IMG/VR virus record: IMGVR_UViG_3300010389_003143
Location: 1 to 64,000 of that record
Reading direction: 5' to 3' (one strand)
DNA from: a virus
Length of the DNA: 64,000 nt
This document shows, piece by piece, positions 54,825-62,851 of this stretch. The notes under the pieces are model-generated. The model worked only from the letters and a program-made list of their open reading frames with translations. It did not search any database and was not told where the DNA came from. Every line of letters starts with the position of its first letter. The stretch's first letter is position 1. The translations under genes were made by a program, and so were the position numbers.

Positions 54825-56151
54825 CCGGCATATCTTCTATTCTAGAGTTTGGAAATACCTTTCTTAGCGATACTTTGCCCTTCGCACCGTCTCGGTTTTT
54901 AACTATATGGATCTCCATATCTTCGCGAAGGCGCTCGTCTTCCCTGTTGGCTATTATAAACACGACCGCAGCGTTATCTCCAATCATTTTTGAGCGTCCA
55001 AGATCTTCGAGAGAGACATCGTCAAGCTTTTTGCCGCCGGTCTTTTTCTGCTGAGCCTTTCTTTGCGCCGCAGTTACAACTGGAATATTCTTTTTCCTGC
55101 AAAACTCATGAAGCTCCTCTGACACTCGGCCTACATCTAGCCAATCTGATCCAACCTGACCTATCGTGGGCTTCATTAGCTGCAGGTAATCCACGAATAC
55201 AGCATCTGGCTTGAAAACTCCAAGAAGATTTTCATACTTAGCCTCGATCTCCCCCATTGTTGTTCCGCGAGGCATGTCCAGAACGTAAAATACTTTATCA
55301 TAATCTTTTTGAAAATCTAAATTAGCAAGCCATCTCTTTTCTTCTACGTCGGTAAGCTGCGCTCTTGCGATGCCTCTGTGTCTTACATTTGCCACATTTG
55401 CATCCACCCTTTGCTCTAGCTGCTTTTTGCTCATCTCAAGAGATATATAAAGAACATTTTTTCCATCGTTGAATCCGGTAACGCCCTCAGACGGGACGTT
55501 GCTTCCAAGCCATGCATTAATTGCCATGTTCATCATCAACATTGACTTACCAGAAGAGCTTGCGCCGCCAATTACAAGCATCTCAGAGTTTTTAATGCCC
55601 CAGGTGTAATCATCCAGCTCTTTGTAACCAGATAGAAAACCTCTAATTTCATCCGGGTTCTCCATCGTATATTTATAGTCGTCCACTCTTGAGTCAACGG
55701 ACTGAGTTACGTTGCCCTCGGTAAAAACGTCAGATTTATAGAGCCTTTCTGTTTTGGATATTATCCTTTTTAGCTCATCGTTGTAGTCGACCAACGATTC
55801 ATAATCCGAATCCAGCTCTTCTGCTTTTTCTGCAAGACGATCGATTAGATATTTGTTATATCTTTCTTTTATTCGATCAATATAGAAGCCTATTTCATTA
55901 GCGCTACAACTTTCACCTCTGATAAAGTCTATTATTTCGGTCTCTTCCTCTTCTGCATCAAGAAGCTTTTCCAGAACCTCATACGATGGAGGACTCTTGT
56001 GTCTGGAGTAATAAGAGTGAATTTGAAGTGTAGCAGGCTTAAAGCTTGGGAGGACAACCAGCTTCAAGAGATCAAACTCTATCTGCATATAAACATCATT
56101 TACATTGGATGATCCCTTGAGCATCCAATTTAAAATTTTGGCATCATGCAT
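54784..56151 (-). CDS. dnaB: DnaB-like SF4 replicative helicase
   Basis: GGASSSGKS, ISLEM, FVDYLQLM, VTAAQ, KNRDG. Confidence 0.9.
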   Translation of the reverse strand: MHDAKILNWMLKGSSNVNDVYMQIEFDLLKLVVLPSFKPATLQIHSYYSRHKSPPSYEVLEKLLDAEEEETEIIDFIRGESCSANEIGFYIDRIKERYNKYLIDRLAEKAEELDSDYESLVDYNDELKRIISKTERLYKSDVFTEGNVTQSVDSRVDDYKYTMENPDEIRGFLSGYKELDDYTWGIKNSEMLVIGGASSSGKSMLMMNMAINAWLGSNVPSEGVTGFNDGKNVLYISLEMSKKQLEQRVDANVANVRHRGIARAQLTDVEEKRWLANLDFQKDYDKVFYVLDMPRGTTMGEIEAKYENLLGVFKPDAVFVDYLQLMKPTIGQVGSDWLDVGRVSEELHEFCRKKNIPVVTAAQRKAQQKKTGGKKLDDVSLEDLGRSKMIGDNAAVVFIIANREDERLREDMEIHIVKNRDGAKGKVSLRKVFPNSRIEDMPDDWAEDFGDENEI

Positions 56152-56822
56152 TATTTTCTCCGATAATCTTTGCCGCCAACGATAAACACGTCGACATGTC
56201 GTGACCTAAGTGATTTGAAAGATTTTGCGAAGAACCCCCCAAATATAGAATCTAAGTCATTATCATTTGAGCATAATATGGTCGGCAATTGGTTCTGGAA
56301 CCTTGTTCGCAAAACATACTCAAGAGAAGTACCAAATAGCTGCTCGGCCTTCTCGGATGGAAAAATCCAATGAGATGAAAATTCATCTATAACGAGAAAG
56401 TCCTTGCCGATGAGTTCCTCATAGTATTTCGAGGTATCCATCTGGCTGGATAGCATGTTTGCAACAACATCCGCCATAGTTGTGTATAGTGCCGAATACC
56501 TATTTGCTATCGCAAGTTTTAATATGCAACATGCGGTATAGGTCTTCCCGGTACCAAGATTTCCTGCAAAGATTAGCGACTTACCTGCATCATATAGGGC
56601 GTCTATATCTTCTATTCTTTGCTTTATCGTTCTCTTAAAGTTTGGGTCACCCTCAAAGTCCTTGAAAGACTTCGACCAATACTCTACCGGAATATTCGCG
56701 GAACAATATTTGTCTAGTCTTGCGGATTTTGCCTCGCACCTTATGCAACCATCTCCTGAACAGGCGGTACAAGACTCCTTAACCTGCTCTTTTTTTCTCT
56801 CAATCTTTTTCCTCGGAATCAC
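56151..56822 (-). CDS. dnaC: DnaC/IstB-like helicase loader
   Basis: N-terminal CxxC..CxxC; GNLGTGKT; LVIDEF; R..NQLPTILCSN; adjacent to the helicase. Confidence 0.85.
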   Translation of the reverse strand: MIPRKKIERKKEQVKESCTACSGDGCIRCEAKSARLDKYCSANIPVEYWSKSFKDFEGDPNFKRTIKQRIEDIDALYDAGKSLIFAGNLGTGKTYTACCILKLAIANRYSALYTTMADVVANMLSSQMDTSKYYEELIGKDFLVIDEFSSHWIFPSEKAEQLFGTSLEYVLRTRFQNQLPTILCSNDNDLDSIFGGFFAKSFKSLRSRHVDVFIVGGKDYRRK

Positions 56823-58737: not shown

Positions 58738-58955
58738 AGTTGCTTATCCTCTAAGCTCTTAGGGTTTAATGAGTTTTTGTCGCAATAACATTGTCCAACC
58801 TGCATAACTGGAGCATAGTTTTTGCATAGCCTAGCGCACTGCTCGTACTTATTGGACTTCAAGGCCATTCCGAAGCAATAAAGCGTTATGCATATTAAGG
58901 CAAAAGTACTCCAGTTTAAAGAAGTCCATCTTTCAATTCGGTGAAATATGCTCAT
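58722..58955 (-). CDS. Small membrane protein with Cys-rich C-terminus
   Basis: One TM helix, then CxxxC..CYC. Confidence 0.5.
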   Translation of the reverse strand: MSIFHRIERWTSLNWSTFALICITLYCFGMALKSNKYEQCARLCKNYAPVMQVGQCYCDKNSLNPKSLEDKQLWPKD

Positions 58956-59344
58956 GGCGCCACCTCCCGCCCTTCGGCGTCGAGTAGGACGAGGGTGCAG
59001 CTACACAGGTCAGCCAGTGCAGGCCCGACCCATTTTGCGATCTCGTGTCTAGGCCAACTACGGTCGCTCAGGGCAGGGTAGTCCACCCACCACTGTGGGG
59101 TCGTTGTCGCCGCCGCAGTCGCACGATCCAGCCCCTCCGCCACCGGCTTCCCATCCCACGCGAGGACGAGGGCATCGTGCTCCTCGATGCCCGCCGCTTT
59201 GCATCCTGCACGCCACCACGAGTTGCCTTTGCCGTCGTGGTCTAACCAAGCTGTCGGAGGACGGGCACCGCACGGCCCCTCCTTCAGCAGCCCGTGAGGG
59301 TCGCCCTTCTCGGGCACTAGCAAGACGGCGTGTACTTTACTCAT
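58952..59344 (-). CDS. Hypothetical protein (GC-rich island)
   Basis: GGAGG RBS, ATGA overlap. Confidence 0.65.
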   Translation of the reverse strand: MSKVHAVLLVPEKGDPHGLLKEGPCGARPPTAWLDHDGKGNSWWRAGCKAAGIEEHDALVLAWDGKPVAEGLDRATAAATTTPQWWVDYPALSDRSWPRHEIAKWVGPALADLCSCTLVLLDAEGREVAP

Positions 59345-59613
59345 GGCGCATCCTCCAGCGCGCGAAGCCTCACCGGACCATCCCAGCGGTCACACCTCTG
59401 GCATCCGGTCCTCGCGAGAAACACACCATCAGCGGCCGAGACGATCTCCTGTCGGTCTGGCCCGCATTGACAGGCGTCACCGACCAGCACCACTACACAC
59501 ACGTCAGCGTGCGAGTTGTATCCATCAGCCCAGCCCCGGCAGTAGTCCTCGGACCCCTCCCTATAAGCAACGAACCCGGTATTCGTGAAGTGTCCGACTT
59601 TGGCTCTGCTCAT
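59341..59613 (-). CDS. Hypothetical Cys-containing protein (GC-rich island)
   Basis: GGAGG RBS, ATGA overlap. Confidence 0.6.
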   Translation of the reverse strand: MSRAKVGHFTNTGFVAYREGSEDYCRGWADGYNSHADVCVVVLVGDACQCGPDRQEIVSAADGVFLARTGCQRCDRWDGPVRLRALEDAP

Positions 59614-59999
59614 GGCGCAGCCTCCAGTGCGGCCACAAGGGCCTCGGCAGTGGGGAGCCAGCCGTCCGTGATGTTGCCAGCCTCACCGCCAGAGCGGATC
59701 ACGCGGGCCATGTCGAGGCACAGGTCAATGCGGCACTCGGGGTGTGCCTCCTGCACCAACGTGATCAAGCCCAGCCGGGTCAGGTCGTCGGTGAGGTCTG
59801 GGACCATCGTAGGGTGAATGGTGTGCGGCACTCGACAAGCACGTACCGCTCCCCATGCCATAGGTAGGTCTTCTGGTACAAATGCCCGCATCCCCGGCAG
59901 CCAGCGAAAATGCCTACAGTTCACCAGCCTTTTCGCAAGGCTCGGCGGTGTTGTCTCGGTGCCACTCGTCGTGGTGTTTTCTACAGAAGCATCGGACAT
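59610..59999 (-). CDS. Conserved phage protein of the LAxRxVxC..RWxPGM..PDLTD..EALVAALEAAP family
   Basis: Motifs present; GAGGTG RBS 5 nt before ATG 59999, inside the HNH gene. Confidence 0.65.
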   Translation of the reverse strand: MSDASVENTTTSGTETTPPSLAKRLVNCRHFRWLPGMRAFVPEDLPMAWGAVRACRVPHTIHPTMVPDLTDDLTRLGLITLVQEAHPECRIDLCLDMARVIRSGGEAGNITDGWLPTAEALVAALEAAP

Positions 60000-60423
60000 C
60001 TAGCCACCTCTCTGTGTGGTACGAGTCGTGGTGCCACGCGTGCGGGCCGGAACACTCGCCGCCGTTGCCGCCGCAACACTCCACGTCCTGTGCTCGCGGC
60101 AGCCTGCCCGACTGCACGGCGTTGTTGACTGCTGCCTTGCACAGCATGTACCAACGTCGCTTTTGGTAGTAGGCACGATCTGTGGCTCGGCCTTTCTCAC
60201 TCGCCCGGTACTTCTTCTTAGCCCTAGCCTGTGCTTCGCGACCCTTACGGCTCTGCCTGTACCGCTTGTAGGTTGCGGCACGCTCGGGCGATCCCTCTTT
60301 TGCTCGGCGGCGCTTCGCTTCGCACTCCTTGCACTTAGAGTAGCGCCCGTGCTTCCCCATAGGGTTGCTCCGAAAGGCGTCAAGAGAGAGGTTCCGCTGG
60401 CATCCTGTGCATGTTTTGTCCAT
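59914..60423 (-). CDS. HNH-type endonuclease with N-terminal Zn finger
   Basis: KTCTGC..SKCKEC; AVNNAVQSGRL..HAWHHDSY..LDVRCFCRKHHDEWH. Confidence 0.7.
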   Translation of the reverse strand: MDKTCTGCQRNLSLDAFRSNPMGKHGRYSKCKECEAKRRRAKEGSPERAATYKRYRQSRKGREAQARAKKKYRASEKGRATDRAYYQKRRWYMLCKAAVNNAVQSGRLPRAQDVECCGGNGGECSGPHAWHHDSYHTERWLDVRCFCRKHHDEWHRDNTAEPCEKAGEL

Positions 60424-60445
60424 ACACCGCCACTAACCAGCTTCG

Positions 60446-60497
60446 GCATCCACCGCCAGCCGGGACAGGCGACGGCGCGTTGTGCTAAGTCATTCAT
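60446..60497 (-). pseudogene. Orphaned 5' end (MNDLAQRAVACPGWRWMP) of the gene family represented at 59610
   Basis: Homologous to LAKRLVNCRHFRWLP of the downstream gene; similarity ends just before the HNH start. Confidence 0.55.
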
Positions 60498-60499
60498 CG

Positions 60500-60970
60500 T
60501 TAAACCCCGATTCCATCAAGTGTTTTTTGTAGTCTAGCGATCTCTGCCTCTAGGGTCTTTTTCTTTTTCTCTAAAGATTTCTTTATCTTTGGCTCTTGCG
60601 CTTTCTTCCACAAAGAAAAGTTAGCCTCATAGGCTGCAAGCTTTTTAGAATAATCTTGCATTCTTTTTTCGTAAGTCTTTAATTTCTTTTTATAAGAGGC
60701 CATCTCTTGATTATATCTAAGATTTTTGCATGGCACAAGAGCTTTGAACTCCATCGATTCATAACGCCATTCATGCTTAATCTCTATATCAGACCAATCT
60801 TTTACTACAGGTTTATGATAATCAAATTTTTCGCAATATTCTTTGACAATATCTCCGATAGCCGATATCTTAAATATGCCCTCGGGAAAGTCTATTGAAA
60901 TTTTCTCAATCTTTATTTTTTCCGGAGGAGTCGGCTTTGTCGGCGCTCTTGGTTTCGTCGGCTTTCTCAT
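60500..60970 (-). CDS. Hypothetical Lys-rich coiled-coil protein
   Basis: ORF track. Confidence 0.6.
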   Translation of the reverse strand: MRKPTKPRAPTKPTPPEKIKIEKISIDFPEGIFKISAIGDIVKEYCEKFDYHKPVVKDWSDIEIKHEWRYESMEFKALVPCKNLRYNQEMASYKKKLKTYEKRMQDYSKKLAAYEANFSLWKKAQEPKIKKSLEKKKKTLEAEIARLQKTLDGIGV

Positions 60971-61167
60971 TTTGAATCCATTTATTATAAAAGTAAAGTG
61001 CGGCTGTAGATACTCCGCTACCCCGATAGGGTGTGCTTGAAATTATAATCAGCCTTTTATCGCCTGTCAATAGTTTTCGCTGCTCTTCGGTAATTTCCTC
61101 AAAGCCCCTCGACCACTCTTTAAACTCCGGATCATCTGGAGAGTACAAAGGCAGGGGCAAATCCCAC

Positions 61168-61368
61168 TTAATCCCCCTCAACTACTTTCTCCTCTGGAAC
61201 AATGCCGTAATCACGACTGTAGCGATAGGCAATCATCTTTGCTTTATTCATTTTAAGCAAAATTTCCAAAATCTCACCAAGACAATCTTCTACATCATCT
61301 TTATCTAGGTTATCTGATTCTCTTATTCTATCTATAGACCAGGAGAGCCTTCTCAATTCACTAATCAT
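61168..61368 (-). CDS. Hypothetical protein
   Basis: GGAGG RBS, overlaps neighbours. Confidence 0.5.
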   Translation of the reverse strand: MISELRRLSWSIDRIRESDNLDKDDVEDCLGEILEILLKMNKAKMIAYRYSRDYGIVPEEKVVEGD

Positions 61369-61669
61369 CTTTATCCTCCAGTGAGTATAGCCAATAAAAA
61401 GCGGTTAACTCTTCTTCGGGCTTTATATCCTTTATTGTTTTGAACATAATAAAGTCGCCCTGGATATAGGCCTCGCAGTTTGGATCTTCCGAATGATTAA
61501 AGAAAGCTCCAAGCGGAGTTCTTATATATCCATTTTCAAATCTATCATCTTTAACGTGAGCAATACCTAACTCTGTGTCTTTGGCTATGTGACTTTTGGA
61601 AAACAAACCATTGCCATCTATATCTGAAAATCCAATATATAAAAATTCTGGAAGAGGTCTGTAAGTCAT
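61361..61669 (-). CDS. Minimal SET-domain methyltransferase
   Basis: GNGLFS, FFNHSEDPNC, DIKPEEELTAFY. Confidence 0.85.
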   Translation of the reverse strand: MTYRPLPEFLYIGFSDIDGNGLFSKSHIAKDTELGIAHVKDDRFENGYIRTPLGAFFNHSEDPNCEAYIQGDFIMFKTIKDIKPEEELTAFYWLYSLEDKDD

Positions 61670-62124
61670 TTTGTATCCTTTTTAGATTCTTTTAATAATC
61701 TAATGGCTTCTTTTTCTTTTTCAATAAGATTGTAATTTTCAGGATTTAGAGTAATTAAAGCACATACAATACACTCTTTCATGGGTGCGCCGTGTCCACA
61801 TAAGTTACATGTACATTCTTGCTCTAAAGGTCCGGAATCATAACCTGCATCACAACGAGCACAATCGTACCATTTTGAAGTATCTCTTGATAAAGATTTG
61901 CTCCAGTAGTTGGGGTCTGGAAAATCTGGATCTCTCAAAATCAAACCAACCGCTTCACTTGTTGATCCGCACTCAATCCCAACGATTCTTTTTTGAACCA
62001 ACTTTCCATCGAATTCTACCCATATTATTTCGTGAATCTTTGGTTCATCGCCCTTCTTTACAGTTAAAATTCTGCCTCTACCCGGTATGAAAGGGGTAAT
62101 GTCAGGATTTCTATAGCACCTCAT
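61666..62124 (-). CDS. Hypothetical protein with Cys-rich C-terminal half
   Basis: CARC..CTCNLC..CIVC; ATGA overlaps at both ends. Confidence 0.55.
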   Translation of the reverse strand: MRCYRNPDITPFIPGRGRILTVKKGDEPKIHEIIWVEFDGKLVQKRIVGIECGSTSEAVGLILRDPDFPDPNYWSKSLSRDTSKWYDCARCDAGYDSGPLEQECTCNLCGHGAPMKECIVCALITLNPENYNLIEKEKEAIRLLKESKKDTK

Positions 62125-62546
62125 TCCTCACCCCCGGTCACCACATCAGCGATGTCGATGCCACTGTCGTAGATTTCGATGCCCGAAGGCATGGGCAGCG
62201 GATCAACCACAACCAGCTTACGGGCGATCTCCGCGTAGTTGACCCTCCGTGAAGCGAGCAAGCGACCCATCTGCATGAAGCCCCACTGCATCCGAAGGAC
62301 ACGCTTCGCCTTCTTCTTGCGGAGTCGCTTCTTGCCCCGATGCTTCCGCATTTCGTCAGCGAGGTTCGCCTTGATGTACTCATCGCGGGCCACCTGTCCC
62401 GTGATCATCTTGGACGCCTCGACCATCCTCGCGCTGATGCTCGACGTGGCGTAGGTCGTTGGGCCGCTCATCATCTCCTCACTGACTCCGAGCCCTGTCA
62501 TGATCTTCTGCCGGAACAGATCCACCTCTGCCTTCGTGTCCATCAC
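62121..62546 (-). CDS. Small chimeric protein with portal-like and major-capsid-like fragments (GC-rich insert)
   Basis: RQKIMTGLGVSEEMMSGPTTYATSSIS and RRVNYAEIARKLVVVDPLPMPSG.IYD. Confidence 0.55.
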   Translation of the reverse strand: MMDTKAEVDLFRQKIMTGLGVSEEMMSGPTTYATSSISARMVEASKMITGQVARDEYIKANLADEMRKHRGKKRLRKKKAKRVLRMQWGFMQMGRLLASRRVNYAEIARKLVVVDPLPMPSGIEIYDSGIDIADVVTGGEE

Positions 62547-62851
62547 GGCTTCTCAGTCTGCCACAGGGCATCCGTCACCGCAGACTGGATCGCCTGCTTC
62601 ACCGTGGGCGACTCGCGGGTCCACGACGAGATCGCGTGCTTCACGGCGTCACTGATAGCCGCGTCGAGGTGGCGGCGTACCGACTCCTTGATTCTGTGCT
62701 CCAGATGGCCGTTGGTCACGAGGTCCGTGATTTCTGCCTCGACCTGCTTTTGAATATCGCCCTGACGGGCAACAATAGAGTTGACGACCGAGTGTCGCAT
62801 CGACTCAACGTCGAGCTGTAGTCGAATCATATGCAGAGGTTGACTGCTCAT
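62543..62851 (-). CDS. Hypothetical helical protein (GC-rich insert; start 62851)
   Basis: AAGGAG RBS before MSSQPLH. Confidence 0.6.
   Translation of the reverse strand: MSSQPLHMIRLQLDVESMRHSVVNSIVARQGDIQKQVEAEITDLVTNGHLEHRIKESVRRHLDAAISDAVKHAISSWTRESPTVKQAIQSAVTDALWQTEKP

Follow-up and report, generated by a model that had tools for sequence, protein, structure and literature searches.

Some bacterial defence systems recognise phages by their head proteins. Lit and CapRel detect capsid proteins via short motifs, several Avs families detect them by fold, and Avs4 and Avs11 sense portals. The Gol peptide of the T4 capsid protein gp23 binds domains II-III of EF-Tu and thereby licenses cleavage by Lit (PMC3014915). 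On the phage side, T4 vs.8, a paralogue of the terminase ATPase, engages Avs2 and is toxic in combination with EcAvs2, and its authors have suggested an anti-defence role for it. In concept vs.8, a lineage-restricted copy of part of a virion or packaging protein that engages a sensor, is the nearest published analogue of the gene that we describe here. This gene is a 141-amino-acid (aa) open reading frame (ORF) at positions 62121-62546, on the minus strand, of a 64,000-nucleotide stretch of viral DNA (the window), which is the first 64 kb of the 80,058-bp IMG/VR record IMGVR_UViG_3300010389_003143. Unlike vs.8, which is a whole folded domain from one parent, it joins sub-domain pieces of two parents through a polybasic junction.

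A first-pass annotation of the window, made by a model from the letters and the ORF list, had proposed that the ORF joins a portal-like segment (residues ~11-38) to a major-capsid-like one (residues ~93-127). The ORF list confirms the reading frame and both segments at these residues, and each segment matches profiles of its proposed parent. We are confident that selection maintains the chimera as an accessory gene of marine phage-G-like jumbo phages, that a ~70-residue portal piece and a ~50-residue capsid piece are fused in it, in frame, at an invariant polybasic helix, and that the copy in the window arrived as a two-gene GC-rich cassette from a GC-rich relative. Most likely the fusion happened a single time, before spreading and diversifying. 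The gene and its parts are as follows.

62121..62546, minus strand: whole chimera gene, encoding a 141-aa basic mini-protein (ORF list, homologues, ratio of nonsynonymous to synonymous substitution rates, dN/dS)
62334..62546, minus strand: portal-derived part, residues 1-71 (BLASTP, phrog_16240, hhalign, Pfam PF07230 via the family member P0036)
62271..62333, minus strand: junction, residues 72-92 (conservation, AlphaFold2)
62124..62270, minus strand: capsid-derived part, residues 93-141 (6wkk_A match, BLASTP, hidden Markov model, hhalign)

The portal family of this lineage is phrog_16240, whose members are ORFs of 560-575 aa adjoining the large terminase. Its profile matches chimera residues 6-40 (E 0.033), and positions 350-390 of the profile match the small ORF in four related records, too. 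Against a 564-aa ORF of the uncultured megaphage LR745208, BLASTP aligns chimera residues 1-94 with residues 377-469 (E 7e-8, a single gap), which bears out the proposed likeness to the tunnel-loop region of portals. That this ORF, found by a broader family profile, is indeed a portal is indicated by its match to phrog_16240 (E 1e-33) and by its similarity to the portal of the relative G001 (25% identity, E 1e-44); it lies 9 kb from the capsid-protein gene of LR745208. Chimera residues 1-71 are collinear with residues 377-447 of the phage-G-type portal. Seven other members of the family align collinearly with the LR745208 portal, and a 103-aa 'short' member keeps only portal residues 429-470. 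A comparison by hhalign of the portal part with the portals of the lineage is also significant (P 1e-4). We considered reading the LRQRW motif after the basic block as continued portal homology and rejected this, as hhalign gives no significant match (P 0.09).

In T4 gp20, residues 359-377 form the stem helix alpha7, residues 374-398 the tunnel loop and residues 399-428 the bent helix alpha8 (PMC4493910). By alignment, the portal part of the chimera corresponds to gp20 residues ~360-428, a stretch that begins in the end of the stem helix and continues through the tunnel loop into the bent wing helix. A divergent family member, P0036, exceeds the gathering cut-off of the Pfam model Portal_T4 (PF07230; 26.2 versus 22.9 bits) and aligns to gp20 residues 360-412. 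Residues 1-71 are homologous to and collinear with this segment of phage-G-like portals (phrog_16240) and, in the case of P0036 and P0037, of T4 gp20-type portals (PF07230). The AlphaFold2 model of the relatives' portal is poor (predicted local distance difference test, pLDDT, 44), and only the order of its secondary-structure elements was used, and that loosely. The nearest neighbours of the chimera in a protein-language-model space are clusters of other small proteins with portal domains, which we take as a lead only. Compared to portals, the homology is local: the chimera has ~70 of ~560 residues, lacks the clip and the crown and is missing most of the wing, so that the full clip-stem-wing-crown architecture of portals (500-600 aa, dodecameric ring) is absent. 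Since it retains only a segment, it cannot form a portal ring by itself.

A side observation concerns three members, P0036, P0037 and P0047. Their portal part is of the T4 gp20 type and their capsid part is still of the phage-G type; either they diverged deeply or the portal module was swapped.

The capsid-derived part is supported by equally direct comparisons. The profile of the chimera family matches the phage G gp27 capsid protein in the PDB (6wkk_A residues 30-71, E 5.7e-4), and BLASTP aligns the chimera with the capsid protein of a relative (39% identity over 64 residues, E 3e-10). Conversely, a hidden Markov model built from 63 capsid proteins of the lineage matches all of the 26 family members tested, at positions ~50-120 and with E values down to 5e-13. 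hhalign of the capsid part gives a probability of 97% (E 1.8e-11), and the cross-controls, portal part against capsid proteins and capsid part against portals, are non-significant (P ~0.1). Hence, the proposal that the second segment is major-capsid-like holds.

The copied piece corresponds to residues ~70-120 of the relatives' 336-aa capsid protein. Because the solved phage G chain begins near residue 43 of the 336-aa precursor, this is the first ~70 residues of the mature protein, from the N-arm to the start of the E-loop in the general topology of HK97-fold proteins. The N-arm region is nearly invariant among the relatives' capsid proteins (at least 76% identity in the 80 listed of 410 relatives). 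Phage G gp27 (PDB 6WKK, phrog_2522, HK97 fold) carries the same conserved motif that is found in chimera residues 93-141. In contrast to gp27, however, the chimera lacks the P-domain core, the A-domain and a complete E-loop; it ends where the E-loop begins. Its homology to capsid proteins is local, stopping at ~120 of 336 residues, and the HK97 core is absent from the AlphaFold2 model of the chimera, which is helical with an extended tail. Ending this early, the chimera is not a protein that forms shells.

The first-pass annotation had gone further and likened this segment to the Gol region of T4 gp23 (residues ~93-122). In part this stands. The tail of the chimera and Gol occupy the same position in the capsid protein (N-arm to first strands), and the spacing of the motif RR-x5-IA-x5-V-x-P-x3-P-x-G agrees with T4 gp23 by eye. 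The profile comparison does not follow: hhalign finds no significant match to T4 gp23, and the Pfam Gp23 model does not match. As far as alignment can tell, the equivalence of the chimera tail and Gol is positional only. Both could be seen as short capsid pieces able to act apart from the shell; Gol, though, is defined inside full-length gp23, and the chimera is a natural stand-alone gene.

Between the two borrowed parts lies the junction, KKRLRKKKAK followed by RVLRMQWGFMQ, with the motif G-K/R-K-R-L-R-K-K-K-A marking the join. The basic linker that had been pointed out in the first pass turns out to be the most conserved part of the family: among 44 members, G71, R74, K77 and K78 are invariant and K73, R76, A80, L84 and W88 near-invariant. 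The codons of this motif vary synonymously between copies whose GC content ranges from 32% to 60%, so that the constraint is on the protein. AlphaFold2 models the chimera with a mean pLDDT of 78, predicting helices at residues 4-18, 23-27, 32-49, 54-68 and 73-99. The blocks covering residues 61-90 reach a pLDDT of 96-97, and the capsid-derived tail is mostly extended.

By alignment, then, the whole chimera is accounted for: portal residues ~377-447, junction, capsid residues ~70-120. Since a portal remnant persists together with the basic and the capsid motif even in the short members, the fusion is ancestral to the family. In a tree of the capsid segment one branch (support 95/75) separates all capsid proteins from all small proteins, and a single origin of the fusion is not rejected by these sequences. 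We also considered that the capsid part was repeatedly re-copied from resident capsid proteins, and the tree does not require this. The simplest origin would be an in-frame deletion between the portal gene and the capsid-protein gene followed by trimming.

Is the ORF a real gene or a unique, unconserved scramble? A word-indexed search returned 42 proteins at E < 0.01 with identities from 100% down to 43%, and an exhaustive search found the ORF conserved in at least 62 representative clusters, every one of them small (49-172 aa) and all from metagenomes. No full-length portal or capsid protein is among the 62 clusters. No longer relatives were found either, with the limit that short matches cannot reach significance in a database of 5.8 billion proteins. 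Across GC contents of 32% to 60%, family members as little as ~35% identical still share the invariant residues. For the three relatives with nucleotide sequence (contigs L002, L003 and L004), pairwise dN/dS to the chimera is 0.25-0.45, and nearly every pair stays under 1 in each of the three segments. The first pass had asked for evidence of purifying selection in homologues, and the answer is clear: the chimera is a real gene under purifying selection. One could argue that it is nevertheless a non-functional relic of a collapsed head-gene module, kept by a translationally coupled operon, given that an in-frame deletion between the two genes is the simplest origin and that its last codons also serve the gene that follows as ribosome-binding site and start. 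With dN/dS well below 1 in all three segments, and with invariant residues despite ~35% identity, 32%-60% GC and synonymous variation in the motif, this reading is largely refuted and hardly credible.

The family is strongly basic (median isoelectric point, pI, 10.2, net charge +11; for the window's protein we computed pI 9.8 and +7). Its shortest members consist of the helix and short flanking stretches, and still have a reduced portal piece and a capsid-type motif. Some members (P0002, P0007, P0012 and P0015) carry an extra N-terminal zinc ribbon. In P0079 the portal piece has an N-terminal zinc ribbon and a different, acidic zinc-ribbon C-terminus that replaces the basic-capsid part. These additions and replacements suggest that the pieces behave as movable modules. 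The window's own protein has no match in Pfam, and a Foldseek search of its AlphaFold2 model against the PDB gave nothing meaningful. Full-text literature searches found no description of a portal-capsid chimera or of its motif. Within the literature and family libraries searched, the family is undescribed.

The window comes from a marine phage-G-like jumbo phage, as judged by synteny and by the likeness of the capsid protein to phage G gp27. CheckV estimates a completeness of 24% for the 80,058-bp record, which makes the full genome ~330 kb long. Synteny links the core genes of the record, at 45-65% protein identity, to those of G006, a complete relative of 335 kb that has terminal repeats. 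The capsid protein of the clade is 53% identical to Bacillus phage G gp27 and matches the solved chain 6WKK (E 7.5e-92). In related IMG/VR records the profile of the chimera family picks up, apart from the small gene, a single ORF of 290-340 aa each, the capsid ORF; it belongs to phrog_2522 'major head protein' and lies in a head module with decoration, scaffold-like and protease-like genes. The head module is absent from the 80-kb record, and the T4-type portal and Gp23 Pfam models match neither this record nor five relatives. The homology of the chimera, for which an alignment with the genome's own portal and major capsid protein had been suggested, is to these proteins of the phage's wider lineage, the phage-G-like jumbo phages.

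The chimera is not part of the conserved genome of these phages. In three relatives that are 94-100% complete and two partial ones, the family profile finds only the capsid protein and the chimera is absent; in G006 its absence was confirmed by HMMER on every ORF. In phage G, Tunturi_5, Rctr197k and LR745208 the profile finds only the capsid protein or the portal. A pattern scan of GTDB species genomes yielded no member, and tblastn against GenBank phages no match. In the window's record the chimera lies within a 12-kb island (~56.8-69.0 kb) that has no counterpart in G006. The core genes flanking the island, at 56151-56822 and 68994-69593 of the full record, are ~400 bp apart in G006. As the first pass had supposed, the setting is thus one of accessory genes, a variable island absent from the complete relatives, in which AT-rich and GC-rich genes are mixed. 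The GC-rich insert that it had noticed is likewise real, with ~60% GC in the chimera block against ~38% in the flanks.

Genomic contexts, read from IMG/VR loci, show with which genes the chimera travels.

62543..62851, minus strand: gene A, 102 aa, the upstream partner of the chimera (sequence; phrog_2600, function unknown, E 5.5e-5)
62120..62851, no strand assigned: GC-rich two-gene cassette of gene A and the chimera, 732 bp (blastn, composition; its ends coincide with gene borders)
61666..62124, minus strand: downstream gene, 152 aa, function unknown (sequence; orthologue in the sibling contig L004)

By blastn, the cassette is 86% identical at the DNA level to the GC-rich contig L002 and 80% to L003, and the homology stops at 62120 and 62851. 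In L002 and L003, too, the gene immediately before the chimera is gene A. In the sibling contig L004 the locus of the chimera is the same, gene A is missing and the neighbours are other GC-rich genes. The copies in L002 and L003 are near-identical at both ends of the chimera and different in the middle, a mosaic that points to recombination within the gene. Of the portals, the LR745208 type is the one most similar to the portal part, and by DNA the chimera is nearest to GC-rich contigs that have an LR745208-type capsid protein; both similarities fit an origin in an LR745208-type GC-rich lineage.

The chimera is tightly packed between its neighbours. It starts with GTG at 62546, followed immediately by an ATG at 62543, and its stop codon is at 62121-62123. 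The TGA stop of gene A overlaps the ATG of the chimera (TGATG), the stop of the chimera overlaps the ATG of the 61666..62124 gene (ATGA), and there are further overlaps among the genes after it, a SET-domain gene included. The last codons of the chimera, T-G-G-E-E (ACC GGG GGT GAG GAA TGA, 62124-62140), hold the Shine-Dalgarno-like GGTGAGGA of the next gene; hence, conservation of the C-terminus may partly be a constraint at the DNA level. The array is on the same strand as replication and nucleotide-metabolism genes, and a scan found no terminator-like site on the minus strand from 63401 to 61167. The position in a coupled operon beside such genes suggests that the chimera is probably made before the late head proteins. 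Promoter and terminator scans of the window gave counts not above chance. There is one perfect sigma-70 consensus (TTGACA, 17 nt, TATAAT; 12/12) at 61070-61042 (minus strand), pointing leftward; it lies inside the ORF 60906-61181 and upstream of the gene 60500-60970, and the total of promoter-like sites is not above chance. The SET-domain gene, two genes downstream of the chimera (61361-61669, minus strand), encodes a 102-aa protein (Pfam PF00856, E 3.7e-10; phrog_28741, E 5.5e-20). A reading of the small ORFs at 60906-62124 (minus strand) as pieces of terminase and EF-Tu is not supported: neither Pfam nor PHROGs backs it, none of these ORFs has a match among the G006 proteins, and one of them is the SET-domain gene.

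What could such a protein do? Our tentative preference is that the chimera is a molecular mimic or decoy for factors that recognise conserved motifs of head proteins. Made before the late head proteins, it would present those motifs of portal and capsid protein that are best conserved and can mutate least, and in this way occupy whatever recognises them. The likeliest targets would be host factors or sensors that detect head proteins via short motifs (Lit with EF-Tu, CapRel; Avs4, Avs11), and the real head proteins would then go unreported. The invariant basic helix might add affinity or block the activating step of the sensor. The residues conserved in the family (N/D-Y, I/V-G/A-R-K, V-E/D-P-L-P and Y in the capsid part; G-L-G-V...T-Y-A-x-S-S in the portal part) are the consensus of the parent proteins. 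Keeping the parent consensus in both borrowed parts suggests that mimicry is maintained. The idea of a decoy or interferer, already put forward in the first pass, would fit the accessory distribution, the place in the operon, the kept parent residues and the purifying selection.

Several points weigh against a decoy. First, a protein that displays the trigger could activate sensors instead of blocking them. Second, the Avs sensors that recognise folds wrap whole domains, and a piece of 50-70 residues may fall short of this. Third, the polybasic helix outranks the borrowed motifs in conservation, which points at least equally to binding of nucleic acid or acidic proteins. Fourth, the missing profile match to T4 gp23 leaves the parallel with Gol a matter of position and spacing, and early expression is deduced from genomic context only. 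Fifth, the window phage has no known host or defence system, and its chimera no known partner. Pfam and PHROGs show no recognisable anti-defence domain in the neighbouring genes and no homology of the family to anti-defence families, PADLOC and dedicated anti-defence libraries not having been searched.

If the decoy reading were true, the chimera would be a phage counter-measure to head-protein sensing, a kind hardly known. Beyond this one family, it is possible but doubtful that jumbo phages carry a whole undescribed class of 'epitope-display' mini-proteins that fuse the least mutable head motifs (here the tunnel-loop region of the portal and the Gol-equivalent of the capsid protein, linked by the polybasic helix) and, made early, blind or divert immunity aimed at those motifs, with the chimera family as one member of a wider repertoire of virion-fragment genes. 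Whichever function applies, a conserved, mobile and selected gene that copies motifs of two head proteins is a concrete candidate, as decoy, assembly poison or capsid-targeted cargo. It indicates that giant phages can build new accessory genes out of structural ones, and a 141-aa protein with three separable modules is a handle ready for experiments.

Assembly interference would act through the self-association elements of portal and capsid protein that the chimera carries. Here the chimera would insert into or cap nascent portal rings and capsomers, and thereby poison co-infecting phages or satellites or delay the assembly of the phage's own heads. The capsid piece consists of the N-arm and first strand, through which the subunits of HK97-fold shells touch each other. 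The T4 tunnel loop, which contacts neighbouring subunits and whose deletion leads to 11-mers and 13-mers (PMC4493910), falls within the portal piece. The accessory, patchy occurrence in a variable island speaks for interference as well, and the GC-rich relative G003 carries a copy of the chimera whose capsid part is not especially like G003's own capsid protein. However, the N-arm region is almost invariant across the clade, so a dominant-negative protein would hit its carrier as well. Interference also leaves the polybasic helix unexplained, and no immunity partner was identified. Taken together, we regard this explanation as unlikely.

Alternatively, the chimera could be a packaged internal head protein, analogous to T4 IPI-IPIII, in which the borrowed pieces and the basic helix target the acidic scaffold or core, bind packaged DNA and are perhaps ejected with it. 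In the parents the borrowed pieces face the interior of the procapsid. The strong basicity of the family would have a counterpart in the scaffold-like proteins beside the capsid-protein gene, which are very acidic (pI 4.2-4.4, net charge -15 to -48). The T4 internal proteins are likewise small and basic, and their loci are accessory and hypervariable. They differ in that an N-terminal capsid-targeting sequence is removed by the prohead protease and that they are not derived from portal or capsid protein; what the chimera, itself portal- and capsid-derived, shares with them is basicity alone. No N-terminal targeting or cleavage signal is recognisable in the chimera, which lies in a replication-side operon distant from the head module in every genome examined, and the complete relatives and phage G have no homologue. 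It is quite unlikely that the protein is head cargo of this sort.

The conservation of the junction raises a further alternative, a nucleic-acid-binding regulator whose working part is the helix R-G-K-K-R-L-R-K-K-K-A-K-x-x-L-x-x-x-W. The portal and capsid pieces would then be no more than the evolutionary material around it, and the arginine/lysine-rich helix may resemble the RNA-binding peptides of lambda N and HIV Rev. Of the blocks in the family only the basic motif is invariant; it is the protein that is constrained there, and AlphaFold2 gives its highest confidence to the long helix predicted for it. The shortest members keep little besides this helix. Yet these same members retain the reduced portal piece and the capsid-type motif, and a mere frame would not need the parent-type capsid residues that are conserved even there. 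Neither Pfam nor Foldseek against the PDB detected a nucleic-acid-binding domain. We therefore consider a regulator very unlikely.

The island and the clade also hold a number of other elements. A second GC-rich block at 58900-60500 (~60-66% GC) encodes an HNH-type endonuclease (59914-60423; phrog_2340, E 4e-23) and small genes with relatives near the chimera in other contigs; its CRHFRWLPGM motif is also found in L008 and L005. A 588-aa ORF at 65793-67559 of the record (minus strand; L202:1793-3559) has ends like the 224-aa ThyX-like protein of L004 (6036-6710). Its insert carries Cys/His and HNH-like motifs and, by eye, resembles an intein with a homing endonuclease in a thymidylate-synthase gene. 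In G003, a 664-aa ORF directly after the capsid-protein gene (L013:4303-6297) shows, by eye, helix-turn-helix, LAGLIDADG-like and methyltransferase-like segments. Finally, a 1182-aa AAA-type ATPase of G002 (L005:12352-15900) is apparently split by an intein-like insert, again judged by eye, and adds to the high load of selfish elements in the clade.

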